Source: Mogibacterium diversum
GTDB lineage: Bacteria > Bacillota > Clostridia > Peptostreptococcales > Anaerovoracaceae
NCBI RefSeq assembly: GCF_938028775.1
Contig: NZ_CALIZG010000024.1
Span: 129,672-193,671, forward strand
Length of the DNA: 64,000 bases
Direction of reading: 5' to 3'
The translations under genes and the position numbers were made by a program. Positions 4,128 through 41,644 of the stretch are shown one piece after another. Below the pieces are notes generated by a model that saw nothing but the letters and a program-made list of their open reading frames with translations, did no database searches and was not told where the DNA came from. Each line of letters starts with the position of its first letter. Position 1 is the stretch's first letter.

Positions 4128-4129
4128 TG

Positions 4130-9210: not shown

Positions 9211-9264
9211 CAAAACATCTATTGTTTACTAACTTTAATAAGTTTACTATTTAAAAACTAGATA

Positions 9265-9861
9265 TTATTTCACCCTAAACTCCCCAAAGAATAGTGGCAT
9301 ATACTTCTTGCTATATTCAGCTAGCGAAAATGCACCATTCTTCATGCACCAGTCAGAAACGAGTGCACGCTCAAGTATTACGTAATTATTAACAAGTTCA
9401 GGAACACTGAATTCTATAGTTATCTCCCCGTTTTCCTGTCCTCGCTTGAGCAATTCACCGAGGAGCTTAAAATAATATCTGTCCTTGTCGAGCAGCTTAC
9501 TAGCAGCAGTATTGGTTAGCTGACTTGCATACATATTGCCTAGAAGCTCATGATCGATATGCTTCTCAATAAACGTATGAGTTTCAAAATTGAGGATCAT
9601 CAGCGTATCAAACACACTAGTGTCCGCTGGGATTCCCTTCATAATTTCTCTATACTTGTTATCGAAAACAGTAGCGAGCGTATCAAGCAAACTCTCTTTC
9701 CCTTTAAAGTAATAGTAAAAAGAGCCTCTCGCCACCTGCGCTTTCTCGATGATGTCGTTCATCGTTGTTGCTTCGTAGCCCTTTTCTTCGAATAGTTCCC
9801 ACGACACTTCTATAATTCGTTCTTTGAGACTTTGTTTCTTTCCCATATTCCTTCCTTTCAT
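9265..9861 (-). CDS. TetR/AcrR family transcriptional regulator
   Basis: 198 aa with an N-terminal TetR helix-turn-helix (TTMNDIIEKAQVARGSFYYYFKGKESLL). Confidence 0.85.
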   Translation of the reverse strand: MKGRNMGKKQSLKERIIEVSWELFEEKGYEATTMNDIIEKAQVARGSFYYYFKGKESLLDTLATVFDNKYREIMKGIPADTSVFDTLMILNFETHTFIEKHIDHELLGNMYASQLTNTAASKLLDKDRYYFKLLGELLKRGQENGEITIEFSVPELVNNYVILERALVSDWCMKNGAFSLAEYSKKYMPLFFGEFRVK

Positions 9862-14042: not shown

Positions 14043-15080
14043 TTATAGATTGTAACGCAGGATCGATTCGTTGAGGTGATTTTTCATCGCCTTCGCGGCT
14101 TCATCAGGGTCATGTGACATGATCGCCTCATAAAGGTTTTTATGCTCCACGAGAACTGCAGATATCTGCTTCGGCTCAACCATACCTGTACCACTTACTC
14201 TCTGCAAGAAGTTTCTGATTGTTCTGAGCATAGATATAATTATTGGATTGTCCGAACATTCTGCAATGCAAGTATGGAAATCGATGTCTTCATCCAGCGT
14301 TTCCTTGAGAGCAACTTGTACATTATCCGTGGTATCATAACTAGCAAATGTATGCTCCATCTTATTATAGATATCGGTTAATCTGTTTAGCTTGACCTGA
14401 TTTTCGCATTGTGCGGCAAGTTCAGCTGATTTAATTTCAAGAATAGTTCTTACCGTTAAGATACTATCAACTTGATCCCCATCAAGAAATAGGGACCAAG
14501 ATAATGGGATAGAGAAGAAGTTAGTTTCACGACTAGAAATATAAGTTCCTTGCCCTAGTCTGATATCAATCATTCCAAGCACGTCAAGCACCTTTAGGGA
14601 TTCTCTAACTGCTGATCTCCCTACACCTAACTTCCTAGCTAGCTCTCTATCAGATTCAATCTGATCTCCACGCTTAAGCCTACCTTCGAGCATTTCATCA
14701 GCAAAATACATAGTAAGCCTATTCACTAGCTTGCTAATACTGCCCTTCTTTTCTATACCTCGCACCAATTCTTCGTTATCCTTATGCTCAGCAAGATATT
14801 TTTCTATCTCCTTGATAAATTCATCCGTGCTCAGCGAGAATAACATCGTATCGATTTGGAGCTTTGTACATACTGAGCTAACAACCTCATTGACACGCTC
14901 TCCTCCCCTTGATTCTAGGTTGGAGAGTGTGGCAATGCTCATCGATGGTTTATTGTCGCTATTTGATAAAAAGTAATCTATAAATTCCTTTTGTGTCATC
15001 TTTAGCGCACGTCTCAGTTGTCTAATGTTTTTCCTTTTGAAGGCAGAATTATATCTACCATCCACCATAGCTTTCACCAT
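14043..15080 (-). CDS. Transcriptional regulator with two HTH domains (XRE-type plus GntR/FadR with an FCD domain)
   Basis: Residues 20-75 resemble an XRE helix-turn-helix (LRRALKMTQKEFIDYF). A GntR HTH follows (ESDRELARKLGVGRSAVRESLKVLDVLGMIDIRLGQGTYI), then an all-helical FCD-like C-terminus. Confidence 0.7.
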   Translation of the reverse strand: MVKAMVDGRYNSAFKRKNIRQLRRALKMTQKEFIDYFLSNSDNKPSMSIATLSNLESRGGERVNEVVSSVCTKLQIDTMLFSLSTDEFIKEIEKYLAEHKDNEELVRGIEKKGSISKLVNRLTMYFADEMLEGRLKRGDQIESDRELARKLGVGRSAVRESLKVLDVLGMIDIRLGQGTYISSRETNFFSIPLSWSLFLDGDQVDSILTVRTILEIKSAELAAQCENQVKLNRLTDIYNKMEHTFASYDTTDNVQVALKETLDEDIDFHTCIAECSDNPIIISMLRTIRNFLQRVSGTGMVEPKQISAVLVEHKNLYEAIMSHDPDEAAKAMKNHLNESILRYNL

Positions 15081-23423: not shown

Positions 23424-24209
23424 TTACAGCTCAACGTCTCTGTTGCAATCCTTTGAGTAGATGTAGATAAAGTCTTCAGTACCTACACCGTAGCAAGCCT
23501 GTGGTACGTATGAATCCATGAATACATAGTCACCCTTCTGTAGAGGAACCCACTCATCATCTAGTACGTACATTCCCTTGCCCTGTAGGAAGTATGCGCC
23601 ATGCTCCTGAATGTGAGTTTCGATATATCCATGGCATGCACCTGGAGCAAATTTCAGCACGTGCATGTTCATATCAAATCCTAGATCCTCTGCAGCTGGA
23701 AGGAAGTCTTTGCTCTGACAGTTCGTCATGCCCTCGTAATCCTTCCAAGGTGTATCGTTAATATTTGCAACAACTGTGTAAGCTTCTTTTCCAGGAAGTG
23801 GATTGTATCTTCTTCTGTAGATATAAACGAAAGCGTCCTTGTCGCTATTGTTTACGAAACTGAATGGCTTATCTGCTGGCGAATAAATGTAACCACCTTC
23901 TGTTAAATCAGCTTCTTTATCAGCATTCTTTACTGTAAGCTCTCCACTAATTACATATAGAAAAGATTCGATTCCGTCTCCACCAATCTTGTCGTTCTTT
24001 CCGCCTGGGTGAACTGTTGAAATATAATCAGCAAATGATGCGCCCATAGCGGGTGAACCTAGAATAGTTGTATCGCAGTTCTCGTAGCCCGGAATAACGT
24101 TCTTAACGATGCCGTCTGGCTCAAGAATAGTGTACTTACCCTTCTTATAAACAGATCTTGTCGAAAGCAGTGTCTCTCTGTAACCGGTATTATTGTTTAA
24201 ATAACTCAT
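23424..24209 (-). CDS. allE: (S)-ureidoglycine aminohydrolase (bicupin)
   Basis: 261 aa, near-colinear with E. coli AllE/YlbA (LGFDMNMH, APGA-HGYIETH-QEHGAY, SKDCNRDVE). Confidence 0.85.
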   Translation of the reverse strand: MSYLNNNTGYRETLLSTRSVYKKGKYTILEPDGIVKNVIPGYENCDTTILGSPAMGASFADYISTVHPGGKNDKIGGDGIESFLYVISGELTVKNADKEADLTEGGYIYSPADKPFSFVNNSDKDAFVYIYRRRYNPLPGKEAYTVVANINDTPWKDYEGMTNCQSKDFLPAAEDLGFDMNMHVLKFAPGACHGYIETHIQEHGAYFLQGKGMYVLDDEWVPLQKGDYVFMDSYVPQACYGVGTEDFIYIYSKDCNRDVEL

Positions 24210-24562
24210 GAAGTTTACCTCTCTTCCTCATGTTTAATAATAATAGACTTTTAACTTGGCGAAACTTATCAACCAATTTTCTATAACAATTTAATCATCT
24301 TTCAACCTTTTTTTCAAGTGTTAGTTTGAAATTTTATGTTCTAAATATCGACCTTATTGCTTTTTTGAATTTTATCTGATAGTGTTATATCATTCTATAC
24401 GATTTCATTGTATTTATCATGTATTTTCAAGCTTTTTAAGATATATTTATTTTGCATATTTTATAATTCAATGATATTTAAATATACAATATCTATTTAT
24501 ATTCATTAATTTATAATTCATTGGTTAGATAATTTTTATTTTTAACATAAAAATTTTTTTGG

Positions 24563-25441
24563 ATGGCAAGCGAAGGAGTTATTAAAATTATGTTAAATGT
24601 TAAGAATATTACGGTTTCAAAAGAAAACAGTATTAACTCGTCAAGAAGATTCACTCTTTATTCCCCTAGCGATTCTACTCTACGCGCTTTAATCGTATAC
24701 ATACACGGCGGCGGACTGCTATGCGGTAATGCGAAGGATTTACCAGAATTACATAAAGAGAGATTGACAGACGAGGGTTACGCAATTTTAGCTATTGATT
24801 ATCCTCTTGCCCCGCAGGTGAAGATTGATGCTATTCTAGAAGACATAATTGATTCTATAAATAATTGTTTTAAGCTAACTGAACTTAGAAGCAATCTCCC
24901 ATTATTTGTCTGGGGGCGATCTGCAGGCGCTTACCTCGCATTGCTCGCATCTGCTAGCGATAAGCTCCACCTTAAATTGAACGGAATAATTTCGTACTAC
25001 GGTTATGGATTTCTATGTGACAGCTGGTATGACACGCCAAGCCCATACTATATGAACCTTCCTATTGTCGAAGAAGCCTCTACAAAGATTCACGATAAAG
25101 AAATCGTATATCGAGGGGATATAGCTAACTATTTCAGCACATATATATACGCAAGGCAGACTGGAAAATGGAAAGACTTGATCTACGAGGGCCGCGATAA
25201 ATATTTCTTTTTGTTATACACGTTAAGAGCCGTAGATAGTCTTCCAGCGCCTTTATTTGCTGCACATAGTGCAGGTGACACAGATGTTCCATATAGCGAA
25301 TTCATCGCCTTATGTAATAAATATCATCCGGATAAATTCATTGCCTCTATACCTGAACATGACTTCGACAGGAATACGAATGAACCTGAGACAGTTGAAC
25401 TTCTTAATAAGACTATTTCATTTGTATCAAATAATATTTAA
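24563..25441 (+). CDS. Alpha/beta-hydrolase fold esterase (HSL-like HGGG family)
   Basis: 292 aa with an oxyanion-hole motif (YIHGGGLLCGN) and a nucleophile elbow (GRSAGAY). The gene and its flanks are markedly AT-rich. Confidence 0.7.
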   Translation: MASEGVIKIMLNVKNITVSKENSINSSRRFTLYSPSDSTLRALIVYIHGGGLLCGNAKDLPELHKERLTDEGYAILAIDYPLAPQVKIDAILEDIIDSINNCFKLTELRSNLPLFVWGRSAGAYLALLASASDKLHLKLNGIISYYGYGFLCDSWYDTPSPYYMNLPIVEEASTKIHDKEIVYRGDIANYFSTYIYARQTGKWKDLIYEGRDKYFFLLYTLRAVDSLPAPLFAAHSAGDTDVPYSEFIALCNKYHPDKFIASIPEHDFDRNTNEPETVELLNKTISFVSNNI

Positions 25442-25478
25442 ATATAATTAGATACTATGAGGGATTCCGTATGAAATT

Positions 25479-25943
25479 TCATCGGAATCTTCTCATAATA
25501 TATTTTAACTTTGGTTTCTCAATTATTTTCTCTATTATAAACCCTTGTTTTTCATATAGGTTCTTAGCAACTTTATTAGAATCAAAAACTGATAAGGTAA
25601 TGCTATTAACGTCTTTATTACCGAAAATGTATTTTAGAAATTCTTTTAATGCCATTGAACCTAAGCCCATACCTGTTTTTTCAGGATTTATTACAAACCT
25701 ACCGATGTGGATACTATCTATACTTGACCTTATTTCTTGTATTATCCCGACAAACTCATCATCATTGAAAATTGAAAAAACATTTTCAAGTTTTCTTATT
25801 TTGTCACAATCAAGCGGATAAGATACCTTGTTCCCCATCCATTGTTCTTGAAAATCCTTTCCCTTATCATTAGACCATTCACATAAAGACAATGCATTAG
25901 TATCATTTATGCCTTTTTCAATTAAGATATTCATACAACTCAA
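25479..25943 (-). CDS. GNAT family N-acetyltransferase
   Basis: 154 aa with an acetyl-CoA binding motif (RFVINPEKTGMGLGSMALKEF). It lies 19 nt downstream of the SIR2 gene on the same strand. Confidence 0.7.
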   Translation of the reverse strand: MSCMNILIEKGINDTNALSLCEWSNDKGKDFQEQWMGNKVSYPLDCDKIRKLENVFSIFNDDEFVGIIQEIRSSIDSIHIGRFVINPEKTGMGLGSMALKEFLKYIFGNKDVNSITLSVFDSNKVAKNLYEKQGFIIEKIIEKPKLKYIMRRFR

Positions 25944-25961
25944 ATTCTCCTAAGCTATTGA

Positions 25962-26957
25962 TTAGAACTGCAGTATTGTTTCAAGCACATCACCGATATC
26001 ACTGCTTATACAAATGCTTCTCTCTTCAAGTTCTGATGGGCAGAAAGCCTCACCGTAATTGACACACGCATAAGTTGAGTTATTATTCGTAATCGCCATC
26101 TGCCAGAATGGGAACTTTATTATCACCGGTGTGTTTGCACCGACACCTAGCTCGAGAAATAGCACATTCATGTTCTCGTGTCTGCGCAGGAAATCCGAAT
26201 ATCTTGCCGAAGCATCTCGCCAGCCACCATCTTCGACGAAAGTCCCATCAGCTCTAAGGTTATTTGTTACTGGTCCTCCTGTGGTTGGCATAACAGGAAT
26301 TAGTTCAGAAGGTATCTGCATCTTGATTGACTTATCACTAGGAACATCGAATTCGCCAGAATCATCGCGTATAAATCCCTGTGCCTCCATAGCTCTATTG
26401 ACCCAGACTTCGTTGTCAAAGGTAATGCCATCCTTACCATCCTCACTTTGGAACAGCCCGAAGTCCCCCTGTGTATAGAATAGTCTCTTTTTATCAAAAC
26501 CTGCCCGCTGGAACTGATGATCAACATTCGTAGTTACTACAAAATAATCTTTTCCATTAACAACCTTAAGTAAATTTTCATAGACAGGCTTAGGAGCCTT
26601 TATATATCTATTATAATAAATTGCCCTTGCCCACCATGCCCAGCGAGTTTCATCGTTAGGAAATGGAAAAAAGCCGCCTGAATATATATCGGTTATTCCA
26701 TACTCCTCTGCAAAATCAAAAAAATATCTTTCAAATCGTTCGCCGCTATACGTAAAACCCGCCGATGTTGAAAGTCCTGCCCCTGCTCCGATGATTACAG
26801 CATCGGCTGCATCCATAGCCACCACCAGCTTTTCCGTTCTTTCTTGAATAGAGCCTTCACCATAAACCATCTGGCCATTGAGGTAGCTCATAACCGCCTG
26901 CCCTCTCTTTATGCTCTCTATATATCCATTAGGTCTATCTCTAAATAAGTCTCTCAT
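25962..26957 (-). CDS. SIR2/sirtuin-fold protein, class-M (SirTM)-like
   Basis: 331 aa with a Rossmann NAD motif (VIIGAGAGLSTSAGFTYSG) and a TTNVDHQFQRAG block matching the sirtuin TQNIDxLHxxAG. There is no Zn-ribbon Cys4. It overlaps the upstream macrodomain gene by 17 nt. Confidence 0.65.
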   Translation of the reverse strand: MRDLFRDRPNGYIESIKRGQAVMSYLNGQMVYGEGSIQERTEKLVVAMDAADAVIIGAGAGLSTSAGFTYSGERFERYFFDFAEEYGITDIYSGGFFPFPNDETRWAWWARAIYYNRYIKAPKPVYENLLKVVNGKDYFVVTTNVDHQFQRAGFDKKRLFYTQGDFGLFQSEDGKDGITFDNEVWVNRAMEAQGFIRDDSGEFDVPSDKSIKMQIPSELIPVMPTTGGPVTNNLRADGTFVEDGGWRDASARYSDFLRRHENMNVLFLELGVGANTPVIIKFPFWQMAITNNNSTYACVNYGEAFCPSELEERSICISSDIGDVLETILQF

Positions 26958-27744
26958 AATACCCTCTATCTTCGTCCTTAAATACGTTAAATATCACTCT
27001 GTCCATAACCCCTGGGTGTTCCGAGAGCCAGCTTCTTACAGTACTAACTGCAATTTCTGCAGCGCGCTCATTAGGAAAATGGAATACCCCTGTCGAGATA
27101 CAGCAAAACGCTACTGTCTTTAAACTGTTTTCCATGCACATATTTAGTGTGTTGATATAGCAATTTGCAAGGTCTTGCTCAAGTTCATGAGTAAGGCTGA
27201 ACTGGACGATAGGTCCAACAACATGAATAACTTTCTTCGCCGGCAAGTTATATCCGTCTGTAAGCATGGGGATTCCCGTTGGCTGCTCATAGTCAGGTCC
27301 AAACTTGGCTCTTAGCCGGTTCATATGCCTATTACATTCCTCTCTAAGCTGTACTCCTGCGTATGTATGAATGCAGTTATCTATACAAGTATGCATAGGG
27401 ATAAAACAGCCTAGCATCTGTGAGTTGGCAGCATTTACTATTGCATCTACAGACAGCCTAGTAATGTCCCCTTGCCAGATTGAGAGACATTCGCTTCTAA
27501 TAGGAATATCATTTACTTCAATAATTCCATGCTCATCTGCCAAACCTTTTAAATATTCATCTTGAACTCTCAAAATTAAACCGTCGATGTGACGAGGGCT
27601 GCGGATGTTCATAAGCGAACGAAGAAGTCGCCTTTTTCCAACAACGTCCCCTGGCGTTTGCAAATCCTTATAATCTATAGAATCTGCTTTAAATTGCTCA
27701 ACTAGAAAATCTAACCTCTCAGCTTGTGTCATCTTTTCATTCAT
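26941..27744 (-). CDS. Macrodomain protein (ADP-ribose binding/hydrolase) with a 95-aa N-terminal extension
   Basis: The macro signature GDITRLSVDAIVNAANSQMLG is present, within a 267-aa protein. Confidence 0.75.
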   Translation of the reverse strand: MNEKMTQAERLDFLVEQFKADSIDYKDLQTPGDVVGKRRLLRSLMNIRSPRHIDGLILRVQDEYLKGLADEHGIIEVNDIPIRSECLSIWQGDITRLSVDAIVNAANSQMLGCFIPMHTCIDNCIHTYAGVQLREECNRHMNRLRAKFGPDYEQPTGIPMLTDGYNLPAKKVIHVVGPIVQFSLTHELEQDLANCYINTLNMCMENSLKTVAFCCISTGVFHFPNERAAEIAVSTVRSWLSEHPGVMDRVIFNVFKDEDRGYYERLI

Positions 27745-27774
27745 ATCTTTTCCCCGCTTTCACAACTTAAAGAT

Positions 27775-27780
27775 ATTATA
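27775..27780 (-). promoter_or_regulatory. Extended -10 box (TGGTATAAT) for the macro–SIR2–GNAT operon
   Basis: The minus strand reads TTGTTTTGGTATAATATC immediately after the upstream terminator, about 30 nt before the macro ATG. Confidence 0.4.
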
Positions 27781-27789
27781 CCAAAACAA

Positions 27790-27824
27790 AAGCCCATTCA
27801 CTAAATATTTGAGTGAATGGGCTT
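27790..27824 (-). terminator. Intrinsic terminator of the NCS1 permease gene
   Basis: A perfect 13-bp stem AAGCCCATTCACT / AGTGAATGGGCTT followed on the minus strand by TTTGTTTTGG. Confidence 0.7.
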
Positions 27825-27887
27825 GATGCATTTTAGTCTATCTTAGGAAAAGTTATTCGCAAATCCCGTAATATGATCGCTACTCGT

Positions 27888-29258
27888 TTATTTCTCGAGT
27901 GTAGTTCCTTTTCTGAAGTTCTCACAAGACTTCATATTCTTCATTAGCAGGTAATAGATAATCCCTGTAGGAATCGTAGCTGTGAAGAACGAAAGGTCAA
28001 CCTTGTAGAGTCCGATTGCCGCACCTACTACAGTTGCAATGATAGCCGCCATGTTTACACCAGCTTTTGACCCATTTGGATCATATAGATCGTCTAGCTG
28101 TTCCTTAGTGAAGTTTCTCTTGTGGAGAATGAAGTAGTCAACAATAAGGATAGCGAAGATTGGAGCGAAGAACGCCGAATAAATCTTAACGAATAGCGAT
28201 AGACCTGCTGCAGAGCTATCATTAGTTAGGATCCATGGGCAAGTTGCTACTGCAAGGATTCCGATTAGGATTACAGCAGTTCTGTGCTTCATCTTAAATG
28301 TATCCATGAATACGTATGCTGGTGGAATTACGTTGCTTGCAAGGTTTGTCGAAAGCTGTGCAAATATGATAAATGCCAGCGTAACAACTAGTACAATCTT
28401 ATTATCTACCATCTCCGCAAATGCGTTGATTGGATTTGCAATTCCAGTAGCTGTCGAGGCCATAGCACCGATAATTCCAAGCATAACTGTCGCTGGAACC
28501 ATAGCCATGAAATACGAGAAGCCTCTTACAGGTGCGCTGTATCCTTGCTTCATCTCACGAGAATAGTCCGATGCATTGAGCATTACTGTAGTTGAGTTTC
28601 CAAAGAAAGCAATTACAGAAGCAACAAATGGAAGTCCCCATGTACCGCTCTTATGCATTAGGTTAGCAGAAATAGCATCCCACTGAGTTGTGAGGCATAT
28701 GTAAAGCAGATAGAACATTGCAATTACAATTACTGTTCCGCCGATATTTCCGACCCACTTTGCACCCTTGAATCCCTTGATTGAGAGCAGAATCTGCACA
28801 ATCTGGAAGAGGATGAAGAATAGCCAGATATTATCATAGTGGAATAATAGTTTCGAAATATTGTTGATAGCAGCTCCACCTAGCCACGTCTGGTAGCCAT
28901 ACCATACGATAGCCGGAAGACCTCTTATCATAGATGGAAGTACATTCCCCTTAGTACCATATGCACTCTTGAGATGAATGGAATATGGTGCTCCAGTCTT
29001 ATAACCGAACTGGTCATTCATAGCTATTCCAACTACTAGGATCGTTGAGCCAAGCAGCACTGCTAGGAACAGCTGTATTAAATTGAGACCTGTCTCCATC
29101 TGAGCGGATCCCATTGCCAGAGTTCCTATTGAGATACAGCCACCGAGCCAAAGCATAGTGTTCGAGCCCCAGCTCATGGTACGTTTCTCCCACGGAATCG
29201 GTTTGATGCTCTCACCCTCATTATTAGGGGTATTTACGTTCTTGTTTTCTGTACTCAT
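27888..29258 (-). CDS. NCS1-family permease (allantoin/hydantoin/pyrimidine type), copy 1
   Basis: 456 aa with 12 TM segments in the nucleobase-cation-symporter-1 topology. Paired with a cyclic amidohydrolase. Confidence 0.7.
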   Translation of the reverse strand: MSTENKNVNTPNNEGESIKPIPWEKRTMSWGSNTMLWLGGCISIGTLAMGSAQMETGLNLIQLFLAVLLGSTILVVGIAMNDQFGYKTGAPYSIHLKSAYGTKGNVLPSMIRGLPAIVWYGYQTWLGGAAINNISKLLFHYDNIWLFFILFQIVQILLSIKGFKGAKWVGNIGGTVIVIAMFYLLYICLTTQWDAISANLMHKSGTWGLPFVASVIAFFGNSTTVMLNASDYSREMKQGYSAPVRGFSYFMAMVPATVMLGIIGAMASTATGIANPINAFAEMVDNKIVLVVTLAFIIFAQLSTNLASNVIPPAYVFMDTFKMKHRTAVILIGILAVATCPWILTNDSSAAGLSLFVKIYSAFFAPIFAILIVDYFILHKRNFTKEQLDDLYDPNGSKAGVNMAAIIATVVGAAIGLYKVDLSFFTATIPTGIIYYLLMKNMKSCENFRKGTTLEK

Positions 29259-29286
29259 ATTGTTCTCCCTTAATTATTTAGCACCT

Positions 29287-30690
29287 TTATCTAACTGGTG
29301 TTACATACTTTCCAAAGCCCTTAGCTTCTTCTACATACATACCATCCTTAGCGACAACGCGGCCACGGATAACTGTGCAGGTTGGTGCACCCTTTCCTTC
29401 CAACCCGTCGAAGCAAGTTACATGTCCCTTTGTGAAGAGCTTTTCCTGCTCAACCTTCCAAGGCTTTTCTGGATCAAGAATTACCGCATCAGCATCAAAC
29501 CCAATTTCAAATGCACCCTTCTGTCCATAGAAACCGAATACCTTTGCCGGATTATAGTCCATAACCTTAGCTATTAGGCTTGGGCACAGCTTCTTCTGAT
29601 GCACTACCATATCGAACATCATAGGAAGGAAGAATTGGATAGCATTGAGTCCGCCCCATGCCTGCCAAATGTCTCTCGACTCATTATCCTTTTCCTCGTC
29701 CGCTGCTGGTGAGTGGTCACTACCAACGCATGATAAAGTTCCATCGAGTACATAATCCCAAAGCTTTTCTACGTCTTCCTTAGTCCTTAGAGGTGGTGTG
29801 CACTTAGCTGGTCCGCCTTTTTCAAACACGAAATCTTCTGAGAAGCCTAGGTAGTGAGGGCACGTCTCAGCTGTTATTGGCAGCCCTTCGTACTGAGCCT
29901 CCTTAACGACCTGTGCAACCATAGGATGACTTACGTGACAGATATGCACTCTACCGCCAGTCGCTCTAGCCATGTCTATTACATTCTTAGTAGCTACATA
30001 TTCTGTCCATACATCGTGAGAATCGAGGAAAGCTCTAATTTTCTCTTGTCTTGAAAGACCAGTCATAGCCTTGGCCTTCTTTTCTCTCTCGAGAACCTGT
30101 CCGTATTCTTCGCAGTGGAATCCACACAGTGCCTTGTATGGCTTTAGAATCTCAAGAGCTTCACGAACATTACCCATATTCACGGTTGGAAAAAGTGGTC
30201 CGTTAGGGCATGTGAATCCCTTAAATGCAGCTACACCAGCCTTCTCAAGATCCTCAAGATCAGCAAGATTGTTGTGAACTGAATATGGATCATCATCGAA
30301 GTCTCCTACAATTCCACCCCATAGACCGAAATCGATGTATGAATGTTTAGTAACCTTACTCATCTTGAGATCAAAGACTTCCTTGTTCATGAGCGATGGG
30401 TCATTGTTAAGAGGCATGTCGATAAGAGTTGTACAGCCTGCAACGGCAGCAGCTCTCGAACCAGTCTCGAAATCTTCTCTATAATCGAATCCAGGCTCGT
30501 TTAGATGAGCATGGCAATCTATGATTCCCGGATATACTAGGTTTCCCTCTGCATCGATAACTTCTGTAGCTTCAGCTTCTGTTCCTGGAGCTAGGAATGC
30601 AGCGTACTTGCCGTCTTTTACAGCAATATCTGCTTCATAGACACGGTCTGGTGTAACCAGTTTACCGTTCTTGATAATTAGATCATACAT
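29287..30690 (-). CDS. Cyclic amidohydrolase (allantoinase/hydantoinase/dihydropyrimidinase family), copy 1
   Basis: 467 aa with a metal-binding motif (IDCHAHLNEPG) in the TIM-barrel amidohydrolase family. Confidence 0.75.
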   Translation of the reverse strand: MYDLIIKNGKLVTPDRVYEADIAVKDGKYAAFLAPGTEAEATEVIDAEGNLVYPGIIDCHAHLNEPGFDYREDFETGSRAAAVAGCTTLIDMPLNNDPSLMNKEVFDLKMSKVTKHSYIDFGLWGGIVGDFDDDPYSVHNNLADLEDLEKAGVAAFKGFTCPNGPLFPTVNMGNVREALEILKPYKALCGFHCEEYGQVLEREKKAKAMTGLSRQEKIRAFLDSHDVWTEYVATKNVIDMARATGGRVHICHVSHPMVAQVVKEAQYEGLPITAETCPHYLGFSEDFVFEKGGPAKCTPPLRTKEDVEKLWDYVLDGTLSCVGSDHSPAADEEKDNESRDIWQAWGGLNAIQFFLPMMFDMVVHQKKLCPSLIAKVMDYNPAKVFGFYGQKGAFEIGFDADAVILDPEKPWKVEQEKLFTKGHVTCFDGLEGKGAPTCTVIRGRVVAKDGMYVEEAKGFGKYVTPVR

Positions 30691-30789
30691 GTCTAATCCT
30701 CCTTATTATGAGCGGAGAGAGATGCTTATCACACCTCTCCGCTTCTTTATAGAATGAATGATTAAATAAAATTCTAACTGAATTTGTTA

Positions 30790-32151
30790 TTAGTCTTCAA
30801 AGATTGTTCCAGTTCTGAAATTCTTAGAAGATGGCATGTGCTTCATCAGTAGATAGTAAACAACACCTGTTGGGATGAGGCTGACATACCACGATAGGTC
30901 TACAACGAATACTGATACGAGGGCTCCAACAGCGATTGAAATTATAGCTGCCCAGTTGATTCCCTTGAAAGGTCCCTGCTTGTCGTAAAGAGTATTGATA
31001 TCAAGTGTGCTCTTACGAAGGAAGTAGTAATCTATAACCATTACAGCAAAGATAGGTCCTAGGAATGCGGAGTATACCTTTGTGAAAAGAGATAGTCCTG
31101 CAGCTGAGTCAGCAGTAACGAGCTTCCAAGGCATAACGCATACTGATAGTATACCAACGAGCACTGTCGCATGTGACCACTTCATTTTGAAGGACTCCAT
31201 CAAAACATATGCTGGTGGAACTATATTGTTGAGCACGTTAGTTGTAACCTGTGCAAATGCGATAAACAGCAGCGTAATAACTGTAAGGAACTTGCTTCCC
31301 ATAGTTGTTGAGAATACGACTACAGGATCTGAATTCCCTGTTGCTGCAGTAACGAGAAGTCCGATGAGTCCCATGAACAGTGTTACTGGCAGGATAGCGA
31401 TTGTATAAATCGAACCAGTCTTAACTGGCCTTATATCCTCCTTTAGGTTTCTCGAATAATCTGATGCATTGATGATCATTGTCGAGTAGATTCCGAGGAA
31501 TGAAGTTGTCGCAGCCCAGAAAGGCATACCCCATGTACCCTTAACATTTGCAAACGATGCGCTGATATCTACAGCGAACTTAGTCTTTACAACGTATAGC
31601 ATGTATGCGAGGATTGCCACGATGAATACGCAAGAGAAGTTCTCAAGCCATTTGATACCGTGGAATCCTTTGATAGCGAGACCAACCTGCAGCAGTGTGA
31701 AGAGACCAAATACAACCGGGAGGTTATCGAATCCCCACAGAATCTTGAAGCAGCTGTTGATAGCACCAGCTCCAACCCATGACTGGAATCCAAACCACAC
31801 GATAGCCGGAAGACCTCTAAGAACTCCTGGAATCTTTACACCAGTTGTACCGAAGCTTGATCTTAGCTGAACAACATATGGCATACCGTACTTATGTCCT
31901 GCATTACCGATAAGCACTAGCGCTATTGCAATTACAAGGCATCCGATTGTCATAGCTAGAATAGCCTGCGCTATTGTAAGTGTGCCTATGAGTGCTGATC
32001 CCATCGAGAATGTACCGATGGATACACAACCACCTAGAAATGATGCTGTGTAAGATAGCGATCCCATGATTCGACTCTTTGTCGGCTGTAGGTCCTCATT
32101 GACTCCGACAACAAGATTCGGATCAAGTGTTTTGTTATCTACAATACTCAT
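30790..32151 (-). CDS. NCS1-family permease, copy 2
   Basis: 453 aa, paralogous to the product of 27888..29258. Confidence 0.7.
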   Translation of the reverse strand: MSIVDNKTLDPNLVVGVNEDLQPTKSRIMGSLSYTASFLGGCVSIGTFSMGSALIGTLTIAQAILAMTIGCLVIAIALVLIGNAGHKYGMPYVVQLRSSFGTTGVKIPGVLRGLPAIVWFGFQSWVGAGAINSCFKILWGFDNLPVVFGLFTLLQVGLAIKGFHGIKWLENFSCVFIVAILAYMLYVVKTKFAVDISASFANVKGTWGMPFWAATTSFLGIYSTMIINASDYSRNLKEDIRPVKTGSIYTIAILPVTLFMGLIGLLVTAATGNSDPVVVFSTTMGSKFLTVITLLFIAFAQVTTNVLNNIVPPAYVLMESFKMKWSHATVLVGILSVCVMPWKLVTADSAAGLSLFTKVYSAFLGPIFAVMVIDYYFLRKSTLDINTLYDKQGPFKGINWAAIISIAVGALVSVFVVDLSWYVSLIPTGVVYYLLMKHMPSSKNFRTGTIFED

Positions 32152-32187
32152 TAAAATATTCTCCTTTAATTTTTCAAATAATTTCGT

Positions 32188-33561
32188 TTAAAATAGTCGC
32201 TTAACCAGTTCGCCTGTACCCTTCTGTCCAACAAGCTTACCGTCTTCTGCCATTAGCTCCCCTCTTACGAAAGTAGCTACAGGTAGACCCTTACCTTTCA
32301 TTCCTGCAAATGCAGAAATCTTATTTACATAGTATAGAGAATCTGCTGTAATCTCCCATTCTCTCTCAGGGTCAATTATTACAATATCAGCGTCAAAGCC
32401 AACTTTAATATCACCCTTCTTTCCATAAATGTGGAATGCTTCAGCAGGCAGCTTAGCCCATGAGTTAGCAAGGACACGTGGGTCAACTCCGCGCTTAACA
32501 ACTCCTTCAGAGTAAATCGCTTGAACGCAACTCTGAATGCCACTTATTCCACCCCATACGTCAAATACATTCTCTATCTTCTGTCCTAGGATTTCATTGA
32601 ACTTCTCATCATATGTACAAGGCGAATGATCTGATGCTAGCCCGGCGAAAACACCTGCTTCTACACACATCCACATGCCTTCAACATCTGCCTTCGTCCT
32701 GAGCGGAGGAGCGCACTTGAAAAGTGGTCCATTCTCTAACACATCGTCTTCTGTAAATGACAGGTAATGTCCACATGTCTCTGCAGAAACCTGATATCCT
32801 TCACACTGCGCCTCATACACCTTCTCAGCAGCTGCTGGATGGCTTACGTGACAGATGTGTGCACGGCATTCAAGCTCCTTAGCAATTTCTACTACAGTTT
32901 CTGTTGCTACGATTTCAGATGCTGGAGTTCTTGAGTCGAGGAAACCTCTCCATGTGAGATTACCAGCTTCCTTTTGTGCCTTTTCCCCTTCTTTAATCAT
33001 CGCAAAATCTTCGCAGTGGAATCCAGCCATGCCGCCAAATTCCTTGATAATTTTCATAGCCTGATACGCCTGCCCATATGTTAGCGGTGAATAGTCAGGT
33101 GATACTGGTCCTAGGAATGATTTAAAAGCGATTACTCCTCGCTCATCGAGGCCCTTTAGCTGATCAAGGTTACCAGGTACAAGTCCTCCCCAGAATGCAA
33201 AATCTGAATACGCATTAGGCTGAACCTTTGCTAGTTTAGCATCAAAAATCTCAGGTGTGGTGAGTGCTGGTTCATTCTGAAGTGGCATATCGATAATAGT
33301 CGTATATCCACCAACTACAGCTGCTGCAGTTCCGTGTTCATAGTCTTCTCTCCACTCGTATCCTGGATCATTAAGATGTGCGTGAGTATCAATAGCTCCA
33401 GGAAAAACCTGCTTGCCAGCTGCATCAATTACTTTAACCGCTTCAGGTTCATCACCCTTTGCTAGGATGGCTGCAATCTTGCCATCTTTGACAGCAATAT
33501 TTGCATCCTGAACTAAATCAGGTGTAACTACCTGTCCGTTCTTAATTAATAAATCATACAT
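32188..33561 (-). CDS. Cyclic amidohydrolase (allantoinase/hydantoinase family), copy 2
   Basis: 457 aa with IDTHAHLNDPG; paralogous to the product of 29287..30690. Confidence 0.75.
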   Translation of the reverse strand: MYDLLIKNGQVVTPDLVQDANIAVKDGKIAAILAKGDEPEAVKVIDAAGKQVFPGAIDTHAHLNDPGYEWREDYEHGTAAAVVGGYTTIIDMPLQNEPALTTPEIFDAKLAKVQPNAYSDFAFWGGLVPGNLDQLKGLDERGVIAFKSFLGPVSPDYSPLTYGQAYQAMKIIKEFGGMAGFHCEDFAMIKEGEKAQKEAGNLTWRGFLDSRTPASEIVATETVVEIAKELECRAHICHVSHPAAAEKVYEAQCEGYQVSAETCGHYLSFTEDDVLENGPLFKCAPPLRTKADVEGMWMCVEAGVFAGLASDHSPCTYDEKFNEILGQKIENVFDVWGGISGIQSCVQAIYSEGVVKRGVDPRVLANSWAKLPAEAFHIYGKKGDIKVGFDADIVIIDPEREWEITADSLYYVNKISAFAGMKGKGLPVATFVRGELMAEDGKLVGQKGTGELVKRLF

Positions 33562-37316: not shown

Positions 37317-37460
37317 TTTATTAGTCCCCCTTGTAAATTATCTAATGTTGACTTTTATTATAGCACAATGACAGCCAATCACATTATGAAAAAATATGAT
37401 TGGCTGTCAGGTAGGTAGTATTAAGTTACGTAAAATCTTATTCCATTTTCTTAAGTGTAT

Positions 37461-38519
37461 TTAAATATTTGATAAACTCTTTGAAAGTCTTTCTAATCTA
37501 AAATCATTTTGTTTTTCAACAATATCAATCCATTCTTCAGAAAATATAGTAGCTCCATGCAAAGCACCAATAATAGCACCTACAATTGTTGATATAGCGC
37601 ATGTCTCATCACCGATATTTACAGCATCAAAGATAGCCTGAATCGGGTTATTTTTTCGTGCAATCACCAAACCAATTGCAGTAGGTACTGTTTCTGCAAT
37701 CTCTGGACCACAACCAATAATATCACGCAATTCGTCTACTGCTACATCTGAGTTGTAATTTTTCAAGGCAATCTGCTGTGCAATTTTTATTCTTTTATAA
37801 ATAGATGGACCTGGATAATCATTTACCATATCATCGTCTAAAGCTAACTGATATCCCTTTTGTGCACCATATAAGGATTTCTGTACTACACTGAACACTG
37901 TTGATTGCTCTTGGAATGCTTCTGCTATTGCTGTTGCTACTGCACAAGCCCCAGAAATACTTAGCCTGTCATCATGCGAAGTCATCGTAATTGTTTTTGT
38001 GTTTAATATTACATCATTAATCTGCTCGTTATTAATTATCCCAGTTGCAATTGCCTTGCACGCAGCACCATTAGACGATAGTGCATAGAAATGCCCTTTG
38101 AATAATTTATTCCCTAAATGACCTGATGTAGACCAGAAGTCAGTGCTATCTCTCATATTTAATAGATTTACTACTTTTCTTGTAGTCATGCCTGCAAACT
38201 GTTCAAAATATTCACTTTTGCCCCATTTTATTAATGCATTAACAGCTACATCGTTATCGATTACACCTTCATTCTCTATAATTTCCTCTAATAAATAATA
38301 TGGTATGCTAAAGGCATCTGTAACCTGACCTAAAGCTCTCCCTCGAGCTGCAGTGTCATCATCCGGTTTTATAAAATTATGAACTAAACCACCATATATT
38401 TTCATTATTTCAGAGCGACTTTTTCCATCTGTAGAGGAAGCAAGAGCATCGCCTATTGAAGCACCGCAAAGAGTGGAATATATTTTATATTCTCTATTAC
38501 TAAAAGCTTTCTCATCCAT
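37461..38519 (-). CDS. ADP-ribosylglycohydrolase (ARH/DraG) family protein, copy 2
   Basis: 352 aa with an N-terminal GASIGDALAS motif (PF03747 signature GxxxGDAxG). Confidence 0.7.
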   Translation of the reverse strand: MDEKAFSNREYKIYSTLCGASIGDALASSTDGKSRSEIMKIYGGLVHNFIKPDDDTAARGRALGQVTDAFSIPYYLLEEIIENEGVIDNDVAVNALIKWGKSEYFEQFAGMTTRKVVNLLNMRDSTDFWSTSGHLGNKLFKGHFYALSSNGAACKAIATGIINNEQINDVILNTKTITMTSHDDRLSISGACAVATAIAEAFQEQSTVFSVVQKSLYGAQKGYQLALDDDMVNDYPGPSIYKRIKIAQQIALKNYNSDVAVDELRDIIGCGPEIAETVPTAIGLVIARKNNPIQAIFDAVNIGDETCAISTIVGAIIGALHGATIFSEEWIDIVEKQNDFRLERLSKSLSNI

Positions 38520-38522
38520 TTG

Positions 38523-39542
38523 TTAGTGCTCCTTTCTCAACTGAAGACTATATATATCATTGGCCAAGCCTTTTATGTCGAGTTTGTTAACATTTTCCAT
38601 CGTAGAAATAAAATGATTTGGAAAACTAGAATCACCATTAAGTGCTCCAACTATTCCACCTACAATAGTAGCTATAGTATCGGTATCGTACCCTATGCTC
38701 GCCGCTTCACTAATCGATCTCATCGAATCGCCTGAACAAGCAGCGATTATTCCAAAAGCTGTAGGAACAGTCTCTGATACGTGTAGACCTGTTCCAATGA
38801 TATCAGCTATGTTACAAATACGCTCATCTATACTACCAGTTCCAAATCCAATATCCACCGCCATCTTTATGCGATTTACAACTGATGGTCCAGCAACGTT
38901 ATTACTATGTGCTTTACCTATCTTTTCACCTTCTTTAGCTCCATAGATCCCGGCATCTATAACATCGTATAAATTCGAATCCTCTCTAACCGCCTCGCTA
39001 ACTGCAGCTGCCACTGCACACGCACCTGAAATAGCTAAATTATTATTATGCGTTACAGATGCTACTATAACAGCATCCTTAATTGCATTATCCGTATTAG
39101 CAGCGTTGATTAACCCTATTGGTGATATTCGCATTGCGGCGCCATTTGTAGCTTGTCTTGCTTTATTTTTTATCCCTTCTGAAAGCTGTACTTCTTCACC
39201 TGCAAATCTTTTAATTGCAAGTCTTGTTGTCGGTCCTGCAAAACGGTCAAAAAAAACAGCATGTTTCGACCATTCGACAAGCGCATTTTGAACTATTTCT
39301 TCATTTACTACTCCTGCATTATCAACAATTTCTTTTGCAACAAAATACGCAGAACTAAAATCGTCTGTAAATCCACCAGCTTGATTTCCTGCACCAAAAG
39401 TATCATTAGGTGGCTTAATAAACTCGGTTACTTTACCTCCAAATGTATCAATTATTTGATTTGATGACCTTGCTTCAGTTGCTGCTCCCATTGCATCACC
39501 AGTAGCAGCTCCAATAAGGCATCCTAATATTTTATTGTACAT
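38523..39542 (-). CDS. ADP-ribosylglycohydrolase family protein, copy 1
   Basis: 339 aa with LIGAATGDAMGAATE. It lies 3 nt upstream of its tandem paralog. Confidence 0.7.
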   Translation of the reverse strand: MYNKILGCLIGAATGDAMGAATEARSSNQIIDTFGGKVTEFIKPPNDTFGAGNQAGGFTDDFSSAYFVAKEIVDNAGVVNEEIVQNALVEWSKHAVFFDRFAGPTTRLAIKRFAGEEVQLSEGIKNKARQATNGAAMRISPIGLINAANTDNAIKDAVIVASVTHNNNLAISGACAVAAAVSEAVREDSNLYDVIDAGIYGAKEGEKIGKAHSNNVAGPSVVNRIKMAVDIGFGTGSIDERICNIADIIGTGLHVSETVPTAFGIIAACSGDSMRSISEAASIGYDTDTIATIVGGIVGALNGDSSFPNHFISTMENVNKLDIKGLANDIYSLQLRKEH

Positions 39543-39603
39543 GCACTTATCTCCTTTTACTTAAAAGGGAAATACTGTTACAGTATTTCCCTAGGTGATT
39601 TTT

Positions 39604-40656
39604 TTATTTCCAGTCTTCCATCTTTGAAATATTATCTTTTGAAACTAATATTATTGGAATGCTACTATCAAGTGTTGATACATCTTGTCCTTGTGATGCT
39701 TTAAGCATTGCAAGGACTGTTCTTCTTCCTCCAAGATAAGGAGACATTGCTACAGATGCATCTAATTCACCTTTTTTTATAGAAGCTTTAGCTTGAGATG
39801 TAAAGTCATTTCCAACTACAACAACTTTCTTTTTCAGCTTGAGTTCTTTTAGTGCTTTAATAACACCCATTGCCATATCATCATTTCCACACGTAATTCC
39901 AACAATATCAGGATGCGCTTGCATAATCGATTTTGTTGCATCATATGCTTTCTGCTGATCAAAGTCGCATTGTTGTACTGCAACTACTTCCATTCCCTTT
40001 GATTCGAATACCTCTTTTGCACCATCTCGTCTGCCGTCTGACTGCGTAGCGCCTTCTGTACCAGCAATTATTGCTACTTTTCCCTTATTTTTCTTTTTCT
40101 TAGCTACAAACTTACCAGCCTGAACACCTTGCTCGTGGAAGTCCATCTTTAGCTGACAATCGATATGTGCTCCTGCAAGCTTTAGAGCATCCTTGTTCAA
40201 AGTTGTTCCACTTAGAATAACTTTTACACCGCTCTTATTCGCAGCAACTACACCATTAATTAGATTGTTTTCAGATAGTGGAGATACTGCAATAGCATCA
40301 TAATCTTTCGAGATCATCGTATTCATTATGTTCAGCTGACCAGCAAAATCTGTGTCATTATCTGTCGCCTGAATGTCGATTTTTACGCCATACTCTTTAG
40401 CAGTAGCTTCCGCACCCTTCTTATTTGTCTGCCAAAACTCGTTTGATAGGGAACTAAGAATTACACCTAGTTTTTCACCATTTTTCTTCTTAGGTAGTGG
40501 CGCCATACTCTTATCAAGTTCTGCTTGCGCCTTCGTAAACTCTGTGTCCTTTTTGCTGCTAGATTCATCACTTTTCTTTTCGTTACAACCTGATAAAAGT
40601 GTCGTACCGAAAGCAATTACTACTATCAGTGATAATGAGATAAATTTTTTTCGCAT
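39604..40656 (-). CDS. ABC transporter substrate-binding lipoprotein (PBP1 ribose/sugar type)
   Basis: 350 aa with a lipobox (LLSGC) and the type-1 periplasmic-binding fold. Confidence 0.7.
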   Translation of the reverse strand: MRKKFISLSLIVVIAFGTTLLSGCNEKKSDESSSKKDTEFTKAQAELDKSMAPLPKKKNGEKLGVILSSLSNEFWQTNKKGAEATAKEYGVKIDIQATDNDTDFAGQLNIMNTMISKDYDAIAVSPLSENNLINGVVAANKSGVKVILSGTTLNKDALKLAGAHIDCQLKMDFHEQGVQAGKFVAKKKKNKGKVAIIAGTEGATQSDGRRDGAKEVFESKGMEVVAVQQCDFDQQKAYDATKSIMQAHPDIVGITCGNDDMAMGVIKALKELKLKKKVVVVGNDFTSQAKASIKKGELDASVAMSPYLGGRRTVLAMLKASQGQDVSTLDSSIPIILVSKDNISKMEDWK

Positions 40657-40693
40657 TTCATAACCTCCTAAAGTGTCAATAAGTATTTTATGC

Positions 40694-41644
40694 TTAAAGG
40701 GTTTGATTTAAAGAACCCTCAATAGCCATAACTTCATCATACGATGCTATACTGCGCGGTCCATATTTCGTGCATTTTATTGCAGCAGATGCACTTGCAA
40801 ATTTTAGTGAATCGGAGATAGAATTACCTTTGTCATATAATGAATACAATAACCCACCTATAAAACAATCTCCTGCCCCCGTTGTATCTACAACATTGAC
40901 ATCGTACGAATCAACCTTAATAAAGCTTTGACCATCAAACCAAATCGCCCCTTCTGAACCAAGTGTACATACCACACCATCATCAGGTTTATATATTTCA
41001 TATACAGTCTTAACTGCATCGATCGGATCAAACTCACAACTTCTGGCAATCTCAAGAATTGCATCCTTACCACCAATTATCATCGATGATAATGACAGAA
41101 CTTCATGAATCATTTCTTCACTTGCACCACATAATGGCATAAATGACGGTACAGCTTGCATATTCATAACAATCTTACAATTTCTCTTATGTGCCTCTCT
41201 TGCCAAAAATAGTGAAACTTTGGGCGAGAACATATCTGTAAAATAAATATCTATTCTGTCAAGAATATTATCAGGAAGCTCGCTTGGTTCAAAACTAGGA
41301 AGACAATCTCCCATATTTGCAAATATTGTATGCCTTCCATCTGGCGTCGTAACAATATATGTATGAGTTGTTATTCCACCTTCTTTTGTATAAATATACT
41401 TTTTGTTTACTCCATCTTCTACAAGACTACTTTTAAATAAATCTCCTATTTCATCTGTTCCAACCTTTCCAACTTGATATGTATCCATACCAAACCCAGC
41501 AGCTGAAACACAAACATTTGCCGAACTCCCACCTGGAAATATCTCCTCTTTATTAATAAGAGCGAACCCATCATTTATTGGCAAATCACTACTATTTAGA
41601 ACTACATCCATGGCAATGCTTCCAGAAGATAAAATCGTTGTCAT
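40694..41644 (-). CDS. PfkB-family carbohydrate/nucleoside kinase (ribokinase or pseudouridine-kinase like)
   Basis: 316 aa with N-terminal GGSSANV and the C-terminal anion hole DTTGAGDCFIGG. Confidence 0.8.
   Translation of the reverse strand: MTTILSSGSIAMDVVLNSSDLPINDGFALINKEEIFPGGSSANVCVSAAGFGMDTYQVGKVGTDEIGDLFKSSLVEDGVNKKYIYTKEGGITTHTYIVTTPDGRHTIFANMGDCLPSFEPSELPDNILDRIDIYFTDMFSPKVSLFLAREAHKRNCKIVMNMQAVPSFMPLCGASEEMIHEVLSLSSMIIGGKDAILEIARSCEFDPIDAVKTVYEIYKPDDGVVCTLGSEGAIWFDGQSFIKVDSYDVNVVDTTGAGDCFIGGLLYSLYDKGNSISDSLKFASASAAIKCTKYGPRSIASYDEVMAIEGSLNQTL

Follow-up and report, generated by a model that had tools for sequence, protein, structure and literature searches.

Within a 64,000-nucleotide stretch of Mogibacterium diversum DNA (contig NZ_CALIZG010000024.1; hereafter, the window), genes of one allantoin-degrading locus are set apart by a 3.7-kb segment (24210-27887) carrying four genes. 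This raises the question of which of the four arrived by insertion, what they encode and how they came to occupy the site. A first reading, made from the sequence without database searches (the sequence-only reading), had interpreted all four, namely an esterase, a GNAT acetyltransferase, a SIR2 protein and a macrodomain, as one block inserted into a pre-existing catabolic island. Our results confine the accessory unit to ~2.35 kb (~25442-27789) comprising the macrodomain, sirtuin and GNAT genes, and assign the esterase, an α/β-hydrolase, to the host locus. We consider it likely that this unit, or cassette, is an accessory operon in which a class-M sirtuin (SirTM) and a zinc-dependent macrodomain (Zn-Macro) form a lone pair that was joined late by the GNAT gene and has a history of recombination. 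We base this explanation on what the genes encode and the motifs they carry, on their distribution among relatives, and on evidence of purifying selection and mosaic divergence.

Extent of the accessory unit within the allantoin locus

The segment fills exactly the gap left between two genes, ending at the start codon of allE on one side and at the stop codon of an NCS1 permease gene on the other. Its features and immediate flanks are:

23424-24209, minus strand: allE, left flank of the segment
24210-24562, between divergent genes: AT-rich promoter/regulatory spacer of allE and the hydrolase gene, orthologous in cassette-free species
24563-25441, plus strand: α/β-hydrolase of family IV (HSL-type), Pfam BD-FAE/Abhydrolase_3, HGGG and GRSAG motifs
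25452-25501, both strands: predicted bidirectional terminator hairpin where the hydrolase and GNAT 3' ends converge, downstream cassette edge (palindrome, folding)
25479-25934, minus strand: GNAT N-acetyltransferase, 151 amino acids from ATG (25479-25943, 154 amino acids, from TTG), Pfam Acetyltransf_1, E 3e-11
25962-26957, minus strand: SirTM, 331 amino acids, presumed NAD+-dependent protein mono-ADP-ribosyltransferase, the writer (PDB sequence and fold searches)
26941-27744, minus strand: Zn-Macro, putative protein-ADP-ribose hydrolase of 267 amino acids, the eraser (Pfam Macro, NCBIfam NF003163)
27745-27783, minus strand: predicted cassette promoter and ribosome-binding site (consensus match, read from sequence)
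27790-27824, minus strand: predicted intrinsic terminator of the NCS1/allantoinase operon, upstream cassette edge (inverted repeat, RNA folding)
27888-29258, minus strand: NCS1 permease, right flank of the segment

Profile searches of the flanks placed AllE, AllD, both AllB copies, allantoate amidohydrolase and carbamate kinase above their NCBIfam cut-offs, and an AllF/AllG fusion and AllH were identified via Pfam. One flank carries AllE, AllD, the AllF-AllG fusion, carbamate kinase, an LctP-family permease, the allantoate amidohydrolase and a GntR/FCD regulator, and the opposite flank carries two tandem AllB-NCS1 pairs and AllH. Judged by these matches, the flanks are an anaerobic allantoin/oxalurate cluster, and the earlier placement of four genes between allantoin-pathway genes was borne out. 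Exact matches to window proteins came from human oral metagenomes (an exact-protein look-up returned no record for the protein encoded at 9993-11192), the AllE query led to Mogibacterium genomes (99-100% identity), and the locus shares 95-97% nucleotide identity with M. neglectum CP128647 outside the cassette. The AllB-NCS1 pairs represent a tandem duplication (27888-33561; AllBa/NCS1a and AllBb/NCS1b, both AllB copies exceeding the TIGR03178 cut-off) that is also present in Baileyella, M. kristiansenii and several Lachnospiraceae; in one metagenome-assembled genome (MAG L026), one of the pairs is mostly deleted.

We fetched 27 species-level genomes via AllE and mapped all window proteins to them; 25 were informative for the hydrolase. 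The hydrolase gene adjoins allE divergently in 24 of these 25 loci, which include Mogibacterium, Baileyella, M. kristiansenii, Dorea, Sellimonas, Sporofaciens, Suipraeoptans, Drancourtella and a MAG labelled Fretibacterium, and it does so in every species in which the cassette site is "empty". Two look-ups of hydrolase homologues at 48-54% identity (L124, L125) led to the same cluster. The intergenic DNA between the two genes is AT-rich, as had been noticed (GC content 0.21 over 24200-24599), but it does not serve as the left boundary of an insertion, because its allE-proximal ~150 bp, including TTGACA...TATTAT and CTTGAAAAAAAGGTTGAAAG, are conserved in M. timidum, Baileyella and M. kristiansenii and are kept in cassette-free species, as for a conserved divergent promoter region. 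The hydrolase-proximal half shows no conservation between species. Since 24 of 25 loci keep the hydrolase and the spacer is conserved without the cassette, we take both to belong to the locus. The hydrolase is thus a long-standing and conserved part of the allantoin cluster across Clostridia, located outside the insertion, and it may be a missing enzyme of the allantoin/oxalurate pathway. In most gene calls it begins at 24590 (283 amino acids), its nearest PDB entries (3h04 and 2qru) are both labelled "uncharacterized", and a literature search returned nothing useful on this hydrolase in allantoin clusters or on Mogibacterium and allantoin. A gene seemingly foreign to a pathway can be among its most conserved members. 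Within the hydrolase-proximal half of the spacer, we also observed a 36-nt direct repeat (24438-24473 and 24488-24523; 78% identity, 50-nt spacing), which may be an operator pair, e.g., for the GntR/FCD regulator encoded at 14043-15080.

These observations bear directly on the view that all four genes constitute one 3.7-kb foreign block between allE and the NCS1/allB genes. The genes do sit between pathway genes, with an AT-rich spacer at one end and a strong hairpin at the other, and the hydrolase evolves faster than any other gene of the locus (63-66% amino acid identity versus 92-94% for its neighbours; nonsynonymous divergence, dN, ~0.27 versus 0.03-0.05 for neighbouring enzymes) and lies inside a recently exchanged tract in the related locus L012. 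However, its position beside allE is retained across several families, empty-site species included, the allE-proximal half of the spacer is conserved, its base composition and codon usage are ordinary and no flanking repeats were detected, making a single four-gene block very improbable. By the refuting condition named in the sequence-only reading, the proposed insertion is hence contradicted for the hydrolase and not for the macrodomain, SirTM and GNAT genes: relatives share the former, whereas the trio is patchy at the site.

Base composition leads to a different gene from the one originally singled out. The esterase gene had been described as conspicuously AT-rich, but relative to the 49 genes of the window, its GC content (0.386, z -0.7), GC content at third codon positions (GC3; 0.348, z -0.2) and codon usage are ordinary, and the AT-rich gene is the GNAT, which has the lowest GC content of all 49 (0.295, z -3.4). 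The expected departure from the flanks was therefore found for GNAT only, with the SirTM (GC 0.429) and macrodomain (GC 0.412) genes, like the hydrolase, matching them in GC, GC3 and codon usage. As for the marks of a genomic island, the macrodomain-SirTM-GNAT unit is patchily distributed and occupies one fixed site, and GNAT alone is atypical in composition. A choice made by base composition alone would have led to an incorrect gene and incorrect boundaries.

Both edges of the cassette coincide with predicted terminators. The strong terminator claimed at 27790-27824 was confirmed by folding: the inverted repeat has 16-nt arms (94% complementary) and, as minus-strand RNA, forms a 13-bp stem (free energy, ΔG, -21.1 kcal/mol; z -4.9 versus shuffled sequences) that is followed by the U-tract UUUUGUUUUGG. 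Directly after this terminator of the NCS1 operon lies a predicted extended -10 element (TGGTATAAT, the reverse complement of 27775-27783), and a predicted Shine-Dalgarno sequence (GGGGA, the reverse complement of 27751-27755) is positioned 6 nt ahead of the macrodomain ATG. At the downstream edge, the hairpin at 25452-25501 folds well on either strand (ΔG -22.7 kcal/mol on the minus and -21.5 kcal/mol on the plus strand; z -5.8 and -5.6). A generic promoter and terminator scan gave counts no better than those of shuffled sequences and missed both hairpins, which were confirmed later by folding.

Searches for traces of a mobile element were negative. Short direct repeats had been anticipated at the junctions, where we found no significant direct or inverted repeats, only short chance matches. 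No integrase, transposase or insertion sequence was found among the genes of the segment, and an Rfam scan of the whole window, tRNA models included, gave zero matches. Alignment of junction DNA across species showed that the intergenic DNA is not conserved and that each species has its own terminators; because of this lack of conservation, no target-site duplication is recoverable.

Identity of the three cassette genes

The macrodomain gene encodes a protein in which the Pfam Macro domain (E 2.9e-32) begins at residue 103, and which matches NCBIfam NF003163 ("protein-ADP-ribose hydrolase") over its full length with 297 bits (cut-off 272). Its best PDB match is 8rsi, the Zn-Macro of a Methanobrevibacter oralis minimal operon (MorMacro; E 6.8e-68, residues 5-267 aligned), and it also matches the Staphylococcus aureus Zn-Macro (SauMacro; 5kiv, E 9e-57). 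The Zn-Macro subfamily is marked by an NAAN motif, a Cx(4)HxC zinc loop replacing the glycine-rich catalytic loop, and an N-terminal extension forming a three-helix bundle (PMC11490716). The corresponding features here are NAAN at N104-N107, the zinc loop C113-FIPM-H118-T-C120 and, according to sequence alignment, an N-terminal extension of ~85 amino acids. The product of 26941-27744 is accordingly best described as a Zn-dependent macrodomain.

The 331-amino acid protein encoded downstream had no match in Pfam or NCBIfam, and its identity emerged from structure databases. It matched the Streptococcus pyogenes SirTM (SpySirTM; PDB 5a3a, phmmer E 3e-44) and a fungal Macro-SirTM fusion (8rsn, phmmer E 6.6e-21), and Foldseek with its AlphaFold (AF2) model (mean predicted local distance difference test, pLDDT, 79.6) again returned 5a3a as the top structure (E 9e-24, template modelling scores 0.75/0.86). 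Class-M sirtuins are distinguished by QG in place of HG, a catalytic Asn, a class-specific Arg and a GVGx[NT]TP pyrophosphate motif (Rack et al. 2015, PMC4518038). Residues N144, Q163-G164 and R235 correspond to SpySirTM N118, Q137 (likewise followed by G) and R192, mutations of which strongly reduced activity (PMC4518038), and they are invariant in 66/66 relatives; the GVGxNTP motif (G271-V-G-A-N-T-P277) is conserved in a 23-sequence alignment. Sequence and model together identify the product of 25962-26957 as a probable class-M sirtuin and, by extension from sequence, a presumed protein mono-ADP-ribosyltransferase.

Class-M sirtuins are also characterised by linkage to a Zn-type macrodomain gene within one operon. 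The macrodomain and SirTM genes overlap by 17 nt here, with the former upstream, and this pairing is common elsewhere. We sampled 80 metagenomic loci carrying SirTM relatives (52-97% identity), 78 of them from outside Mogibacterium, and found a macrodomain gene adjacent to SirTM in 67 of the 80, with most of the others cut by contig ends. Relative to M. pumilum, the ratio of nonsynonymous to synonymous divergence (dN/dS) is 0.065 for the macrodomain and 0.072 for SirTM, indicative of purifying selection, as is the somewhat higher value for GNAT (0.18).

The GNAT gene, by comparison, has the appearance of a late arrival. Its ATG start lies 27 nt past the SirTM stop codon, and its low GC content recurs in L011, L012 and M. 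pumilum (0.294-0.296). Its homologues in Peptoanaerobacter stomatis, Gemella and Streptococcus (57-66% identity) are solitary genes in unrelated settings. We rejected GNAT as a conserved partner of SirTM, as homologues were present only in the two Mogibacterium loci of the sample and absent beside all 78 others. The GC content of 0.295 points to a separate origin, and the gene is probably a separately acquired add-on that joined the pair in Mogibacterium only.

This distribution also weighs on a different interpretation of the trio, as an acetylation cycle in which GNAT acetylates a target, the sirtuin deacetylates it to yield O-acetyl-ADP-ribose, and the macrodomain clears this product. A GNAT and a sirtuin are the classical pair for reversible lysine acetylation, MacroD-type macrodomains can deacetylate O-acetyl-ADP-ribose (secondary NCBIfam matches to O-acetyl-ADP-ribose deacetylase were obtained here), and the three genes lie close together on one strand, with GNAT under purifying selection. 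However, the SirTM has QG rather than the catalytic HG. Replacing Q137 by His abolishes the activity of SpySirTM, and the apparent lack of deacylation by SirTMs has been ascribed to the missing His (PMC4518038), both of which argue against a deacylase. Together with the absence of GNAT from the other SirTM/macrodomain loci and its separate origin, this renders an acetylation cycle unlikely. A SirTM/Zn-Macro pair with an appended GNAT is the reading we carry forward.

Site states and exchange among lineages

The cassette occupies the space between the convergent 3' ends of the NCS1 and hydrolase genes, and the content of this site varies across relatives:

Empty (~90-160 bp), NCS1 directly convergent with the hydrolase: Baileyella intestinalis; Dorea, Sporofaciens and Suipraeoptans loci
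Radical-SAM/SPASM gene: M. kristiansenii clade
Macrodomain by itself (74% identity, with intact motifs): M. timidum
Macrodomain-SirTM-GNAT: the window, L011, L012, L026, M. pumilum and M. neglectum

Among the loci compared, the complete trio was seen in oral Mogibacterium only. The orphan Zn-macrodomain of M. timidum ATCC 33093 (L036, 7691-8584) retains NAAN and Cx4HxC without SirTM or GNAT, and a GGTTATA tandem repeat lies beside the hydrolase stop codon of this strain. In M. neglectum CP128647 (L126, 7377-8365), SirTM is split into open reading frames (ORFs) of 87 and 197 amino acids by a 1-bp deletion in an A7 run (equivalent to window positions ~26717-26723), with the macrodomain and GNAT intact. 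Other cargo was observed at the hydrolase 3' end in the M. kristiansenii clade (L017, 7284-8627; L013, 6665-8623), some members of which encode a 179-amino acid membrane protein in addition to the radical-SAM/SPASM protein, and in MAG L029 (7363-8830), where two unrelated ORFs occupy the site and the hydrolase is missing.

In a neighbour-joining tree of macrodomains (no bootstrap), all Mogibacterium copies group together with M. timidum as sister, and the simplest reading is a single gain in the ancestor of oral Mogibacterium followed by partial losses. Synonymous divergence (dS) to M. timidum and Baileyella has reached saturation at several genes, the M. timidum macrodomain among them, and so cannot be used to date the insertion. 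For more recent divergence, a mosaic is apparent. In the comparison with L012, which is a different species-level genome, the outer flanks (allantoate amidohydrolase, AllD, AllBb) show dS values of 1.05-1.27, but dS is 0.06 for AllE, 0.25 for the hydrolase, 0.09 for GNAT, 0.15 for SirTM and 0.12 for the macrodomain; nucleotide identity is 94-98% in the central tract versus 85-86% in the outer flanks. The pattern is reversed in comparison with M. neglectum, where the flanks remain 95-97% identical and the macrodomain and SirTM genes are 85.7% and 88.8% identical, respectively. This mosaic shows that cassette alleles have been exchanged by homologous recombination via the conserved flanks, without mobility genes.

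Central placement in the locus could also suggest that the cassette regulates an allantoin or nitrogen enzyme or transporter by ADP-ribosylation, as DraT/DraG does with nitrogenase. The cassette lies mid-locus in at least six Mogibacterium genomes and has been exchanged together with AllE and the hydrolase. Its fate in M. pumilum speaks to the contrary. This complete genome has a deletion running from AllH through NCS1a, frameshifts in the hydrolase and AllE genes, and only remnants of AllFG and the M20 amidohydrolase, yet its macrodomain, SirTM and GNAT are all full-length. Conversely, Baileyella, Dorea and others have an intact pathway but no cassette, allantoin genes were found at 0 of the 78 non-Mogibacterium SirTM loci, and the cassette has its own predicted promoter and terminators. 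The cassette is hence maintained independently of allantoin catabolism, and we regard a regulatory link to the pathway as highly unlikely.

The same site states prompt consideration of a selfish toxin-antitoxin-like or anti-phage module akin to DarT/DarG, with the sirtuin as an NAD+-consuming or ADP-ribosylating toxin and the macrodomain as antidote. Consistent with such a module are the antidote-first overlapping gene order, the patchy distribution and the occurrence of SirTM homologues on 27 plasmid and 4 phage records (≤53% identity over most of the protein). Loss or breakage of the writer with retention of the eraser, as in M. timidum and possibly M. neglectum, is likewise the expected order of decay. 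PADLOC models, however, gave no match above the default threshold for any of the four proteins (none at all for the hydrolase, SirTM and macrodomain; for GNAT, one weak match to candidate family PDC-S26, E 1.2e-4, 19 bits), and in other genomes the pair is found beside redox regulators and oxidoreductases rather than defence or mobile genes. Moreover, both genes are under strong purifying selection over species-level divergence, and characterised SirTMs are highly substrate-specific (PMC4518038). We therefore find a toxin-antitoxin role improbable, and continue to favour an accessory SirTM/Zn-Macro operon.

Two further stretches of the window vary or stand out in composition. A 7.0-kb low-GC block (37410-44419; gene GC 0.33-0.39, GC3 0.22-0.27) is a true strain-variable island, because a conspecific metagenomic contig (L123) has 56 bp in its place. 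This block lies ~9.7 kb from the macrodomain/SirTM pair and encodes two ADP-ribosylglycohydrolase-family proteins (37461-38519 and 38523-39542), a sugar-type ABC transporter (Peripla_BP_4, BPD_transp_2, ABC_tran), a PfkB kinase and an Indigoidine_A/PsuG-like protein. The second stretch (~5040-9260; 4.2 kb, GC 0.27-0.31) holds at least seven small same-strand ORFs (87-143 amino acids) without a Pfam match, several of which are paralogous via C-terminal KGRNT..II..LN.EGY and GY.W.Y motifs and some of which have an N-terminal hydrophobic segment; it is flanked by a glycyl-radical enzyme and its activase (1752-5038) and by a TetR regulator (9265-9861).

Probable function of the pair and relation to known systems

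The Pfam assignments of all called genes within ±10 kb include no GCV_H, BPL_LplA_LipB, OYE or luciferase-like (LLM) family, and because gcvH-L, lplA2, OYE and LLM genes are missing from this range, we class the SirTM and Zn-Macro as a lone pair. Lone, or "minimal operon", SirTM/Zn-Macro pairs are a published arrangement, for which the modified substrate is an open question; the only known SirTM substrate is GcvH-L, from the extended operons of Staphylococcus and Streptococcus (PMC11490716). With no GcvH-L or LplA2 nearby, a lipoylation-dependent GcvH-L mechanism cannot be assumed here.

As we envisage it, the three minus-strand genes would be co-transcribed from their own extended -10 promoter between the two bracketing terminators. 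By homology, SirTM would use NAD+ to mono-ADP-ribosylate a protein target and Zn-Macro would strip the modification, producing an ON/OFF switch, to whose transcript the low-GC and otherwise stand-alone GNAT would have been added in Mogibacterium only. The cassette may have entered a permissive site at the NCS1 and hydrolase 3' ends in an ancestor of oral Mogibacterium, without mobility genes of its own, and has since been shuffled among lineages by homologous recombination via the allantoin genes and partly lost in some.

Recurrent neighbours of lone pairs in other bacteria offer a potential lead to function. These include Rrf2 regulators (20 loci), fusions of PNPOx with ferredoxin (Fer4; 10), SnoaL_2 (9), HxlR regulators (8), PNPOx flavoproteins (6) and NAD(P)H-binding NAD_binding_10 proteins (5). 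A redox-stress role is suggested because Rrf2 and HxlR regulators and flavin or NAD(P)H oxidoreductases recur beside lone pairs, and this would fit the oxidative-stress role proposed for extended operons; we put it forward tentatively, as a possibility that is more doubtful than probable. If correct, the redox neighbours extend the oxidative-stress link to systems without GcvH-L.

Several observations weigh against our interpretation. All function proposed here rests on homology to enzymes from species with extended operons, the lone-pair Zn-Macro MorMacro does not act on GcvH-L (PMC11490716), and none of the redox-type neighbours seen elsewhere occurs in the Mogibacterium cassette. The AF2 model of SirTM is weak at residues 69-96, and the protein lacks all four small-domain Cys of SpySirTM and the fungal fusion protein Mfs1 (S171, K175, M223 and T226 instead). 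The pattern suggests that these four Cys are zinc ligands in SpySirTM and Mfs1, and a Cys-less SirTM could fold or behave differently. Of 66 sampled SirTM relatives, 52 lack these residues and 14 keep all four. Regarding the history of the site, a gain in Mogibacterium rather than a loss in Baileyella is favoured by parsimony and an unbootstrapped neighbour-joining tree. Lastly, the M. neglectum SirTM frameshift lies in an A7 run and could be a homopolymer artefact of sequencing; alternatively, this species has truly lost the writer, as M. timidum has.

The locus nonetheless offers leads, although it does not settle what lone pairs modify. SirTM/Zn-Macro pairs are widespread (at least 8000 protein candidates; among the matches listed, 588 of 600 metagenome stretches encode a relative), and the large SirTM subclade without small-domain cysteines is one such lead. 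Closely related oral Mogibacterium with differing cassette states are suited to comparative ADP-ribosylome work, and the states of the locus form a series from an empty site, through macrodomain only, frameshifted SirTM and intact trio, to a trio that outlives its host locus. Were SirTM, Zn-Macro and GNAT to form a three-enzyme circuit that combines ADP-ribosylation and acetylation on a common target, this series would give direct access to the substrate of a lone-pair SirTM; we consider such a circuit a long shot.

Comparison with known systems places both the host locus and its cassette. The window holds all pathway genes of the anaerobic allantoin/oxalurate cluster of Clostridia (allB, allC, allE, allD, allFGH and carbamate kinase) as the host locus, to which it adds the allE-paired α/β-hydrolase and the tandem allB-NCS1 arrangement; the cassette is not a member of this cluster. 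Its pair most closely resembles the lone pairs of Methanobrevibacter oralis (MorMacro, PDB 8RSI-K), Enterococcus faecalis and Treponema pedis (PMC11490716, PMC4518038), with which it shares adjacent overlapping genes, the absence of gcvH-L and lplA2, the N-terminal extension, NAAN and Cx4HxC of Zn-Macro, and the QG, catalytic Asn and Arg, and GVGxNTP of the sirtuin. The Mogibacterium version differs in its appended GNAT, its setting in an allantoin locus and the missing small-domain Cys, a trait it shares with most relatives. The extended operons of Staphylococcus aureus and Streptococcus pyogenes (GcvH-L, Zn-Macro and SirTM, together with LplA2, plus OYE and LLM) employ the same writer and eraser families, presumably for the same chemistry of reversible protein mono-ADP-ribosylation, whereas in Mogibacterium their four further components are not encoded nearby. 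Both domains are also homologous to fungal Mfs1 (PDB 8RSN; E 6.6e-21 for the SirTM part and 3e-42 for the macrodomain part), which is a fusion that keeps the small-domain cysteines and a structural zinc, in contrast to the two separate genes of Mogibacterium. DarT/DarG likewise couples an ADP-ribosyltransferase with a reversing macrodomain in an overlapping, patchily distributed two-gene layout, but DarT has a DarT/PARP-like fold and a DNA target, whereas SirTM has a sirtuin fold and characterised SirTMs have protein targets. The core of the cassette is a known kind of system, and its novelty is minor, lying in the appended GNAT and the missing small-domain cysteines.

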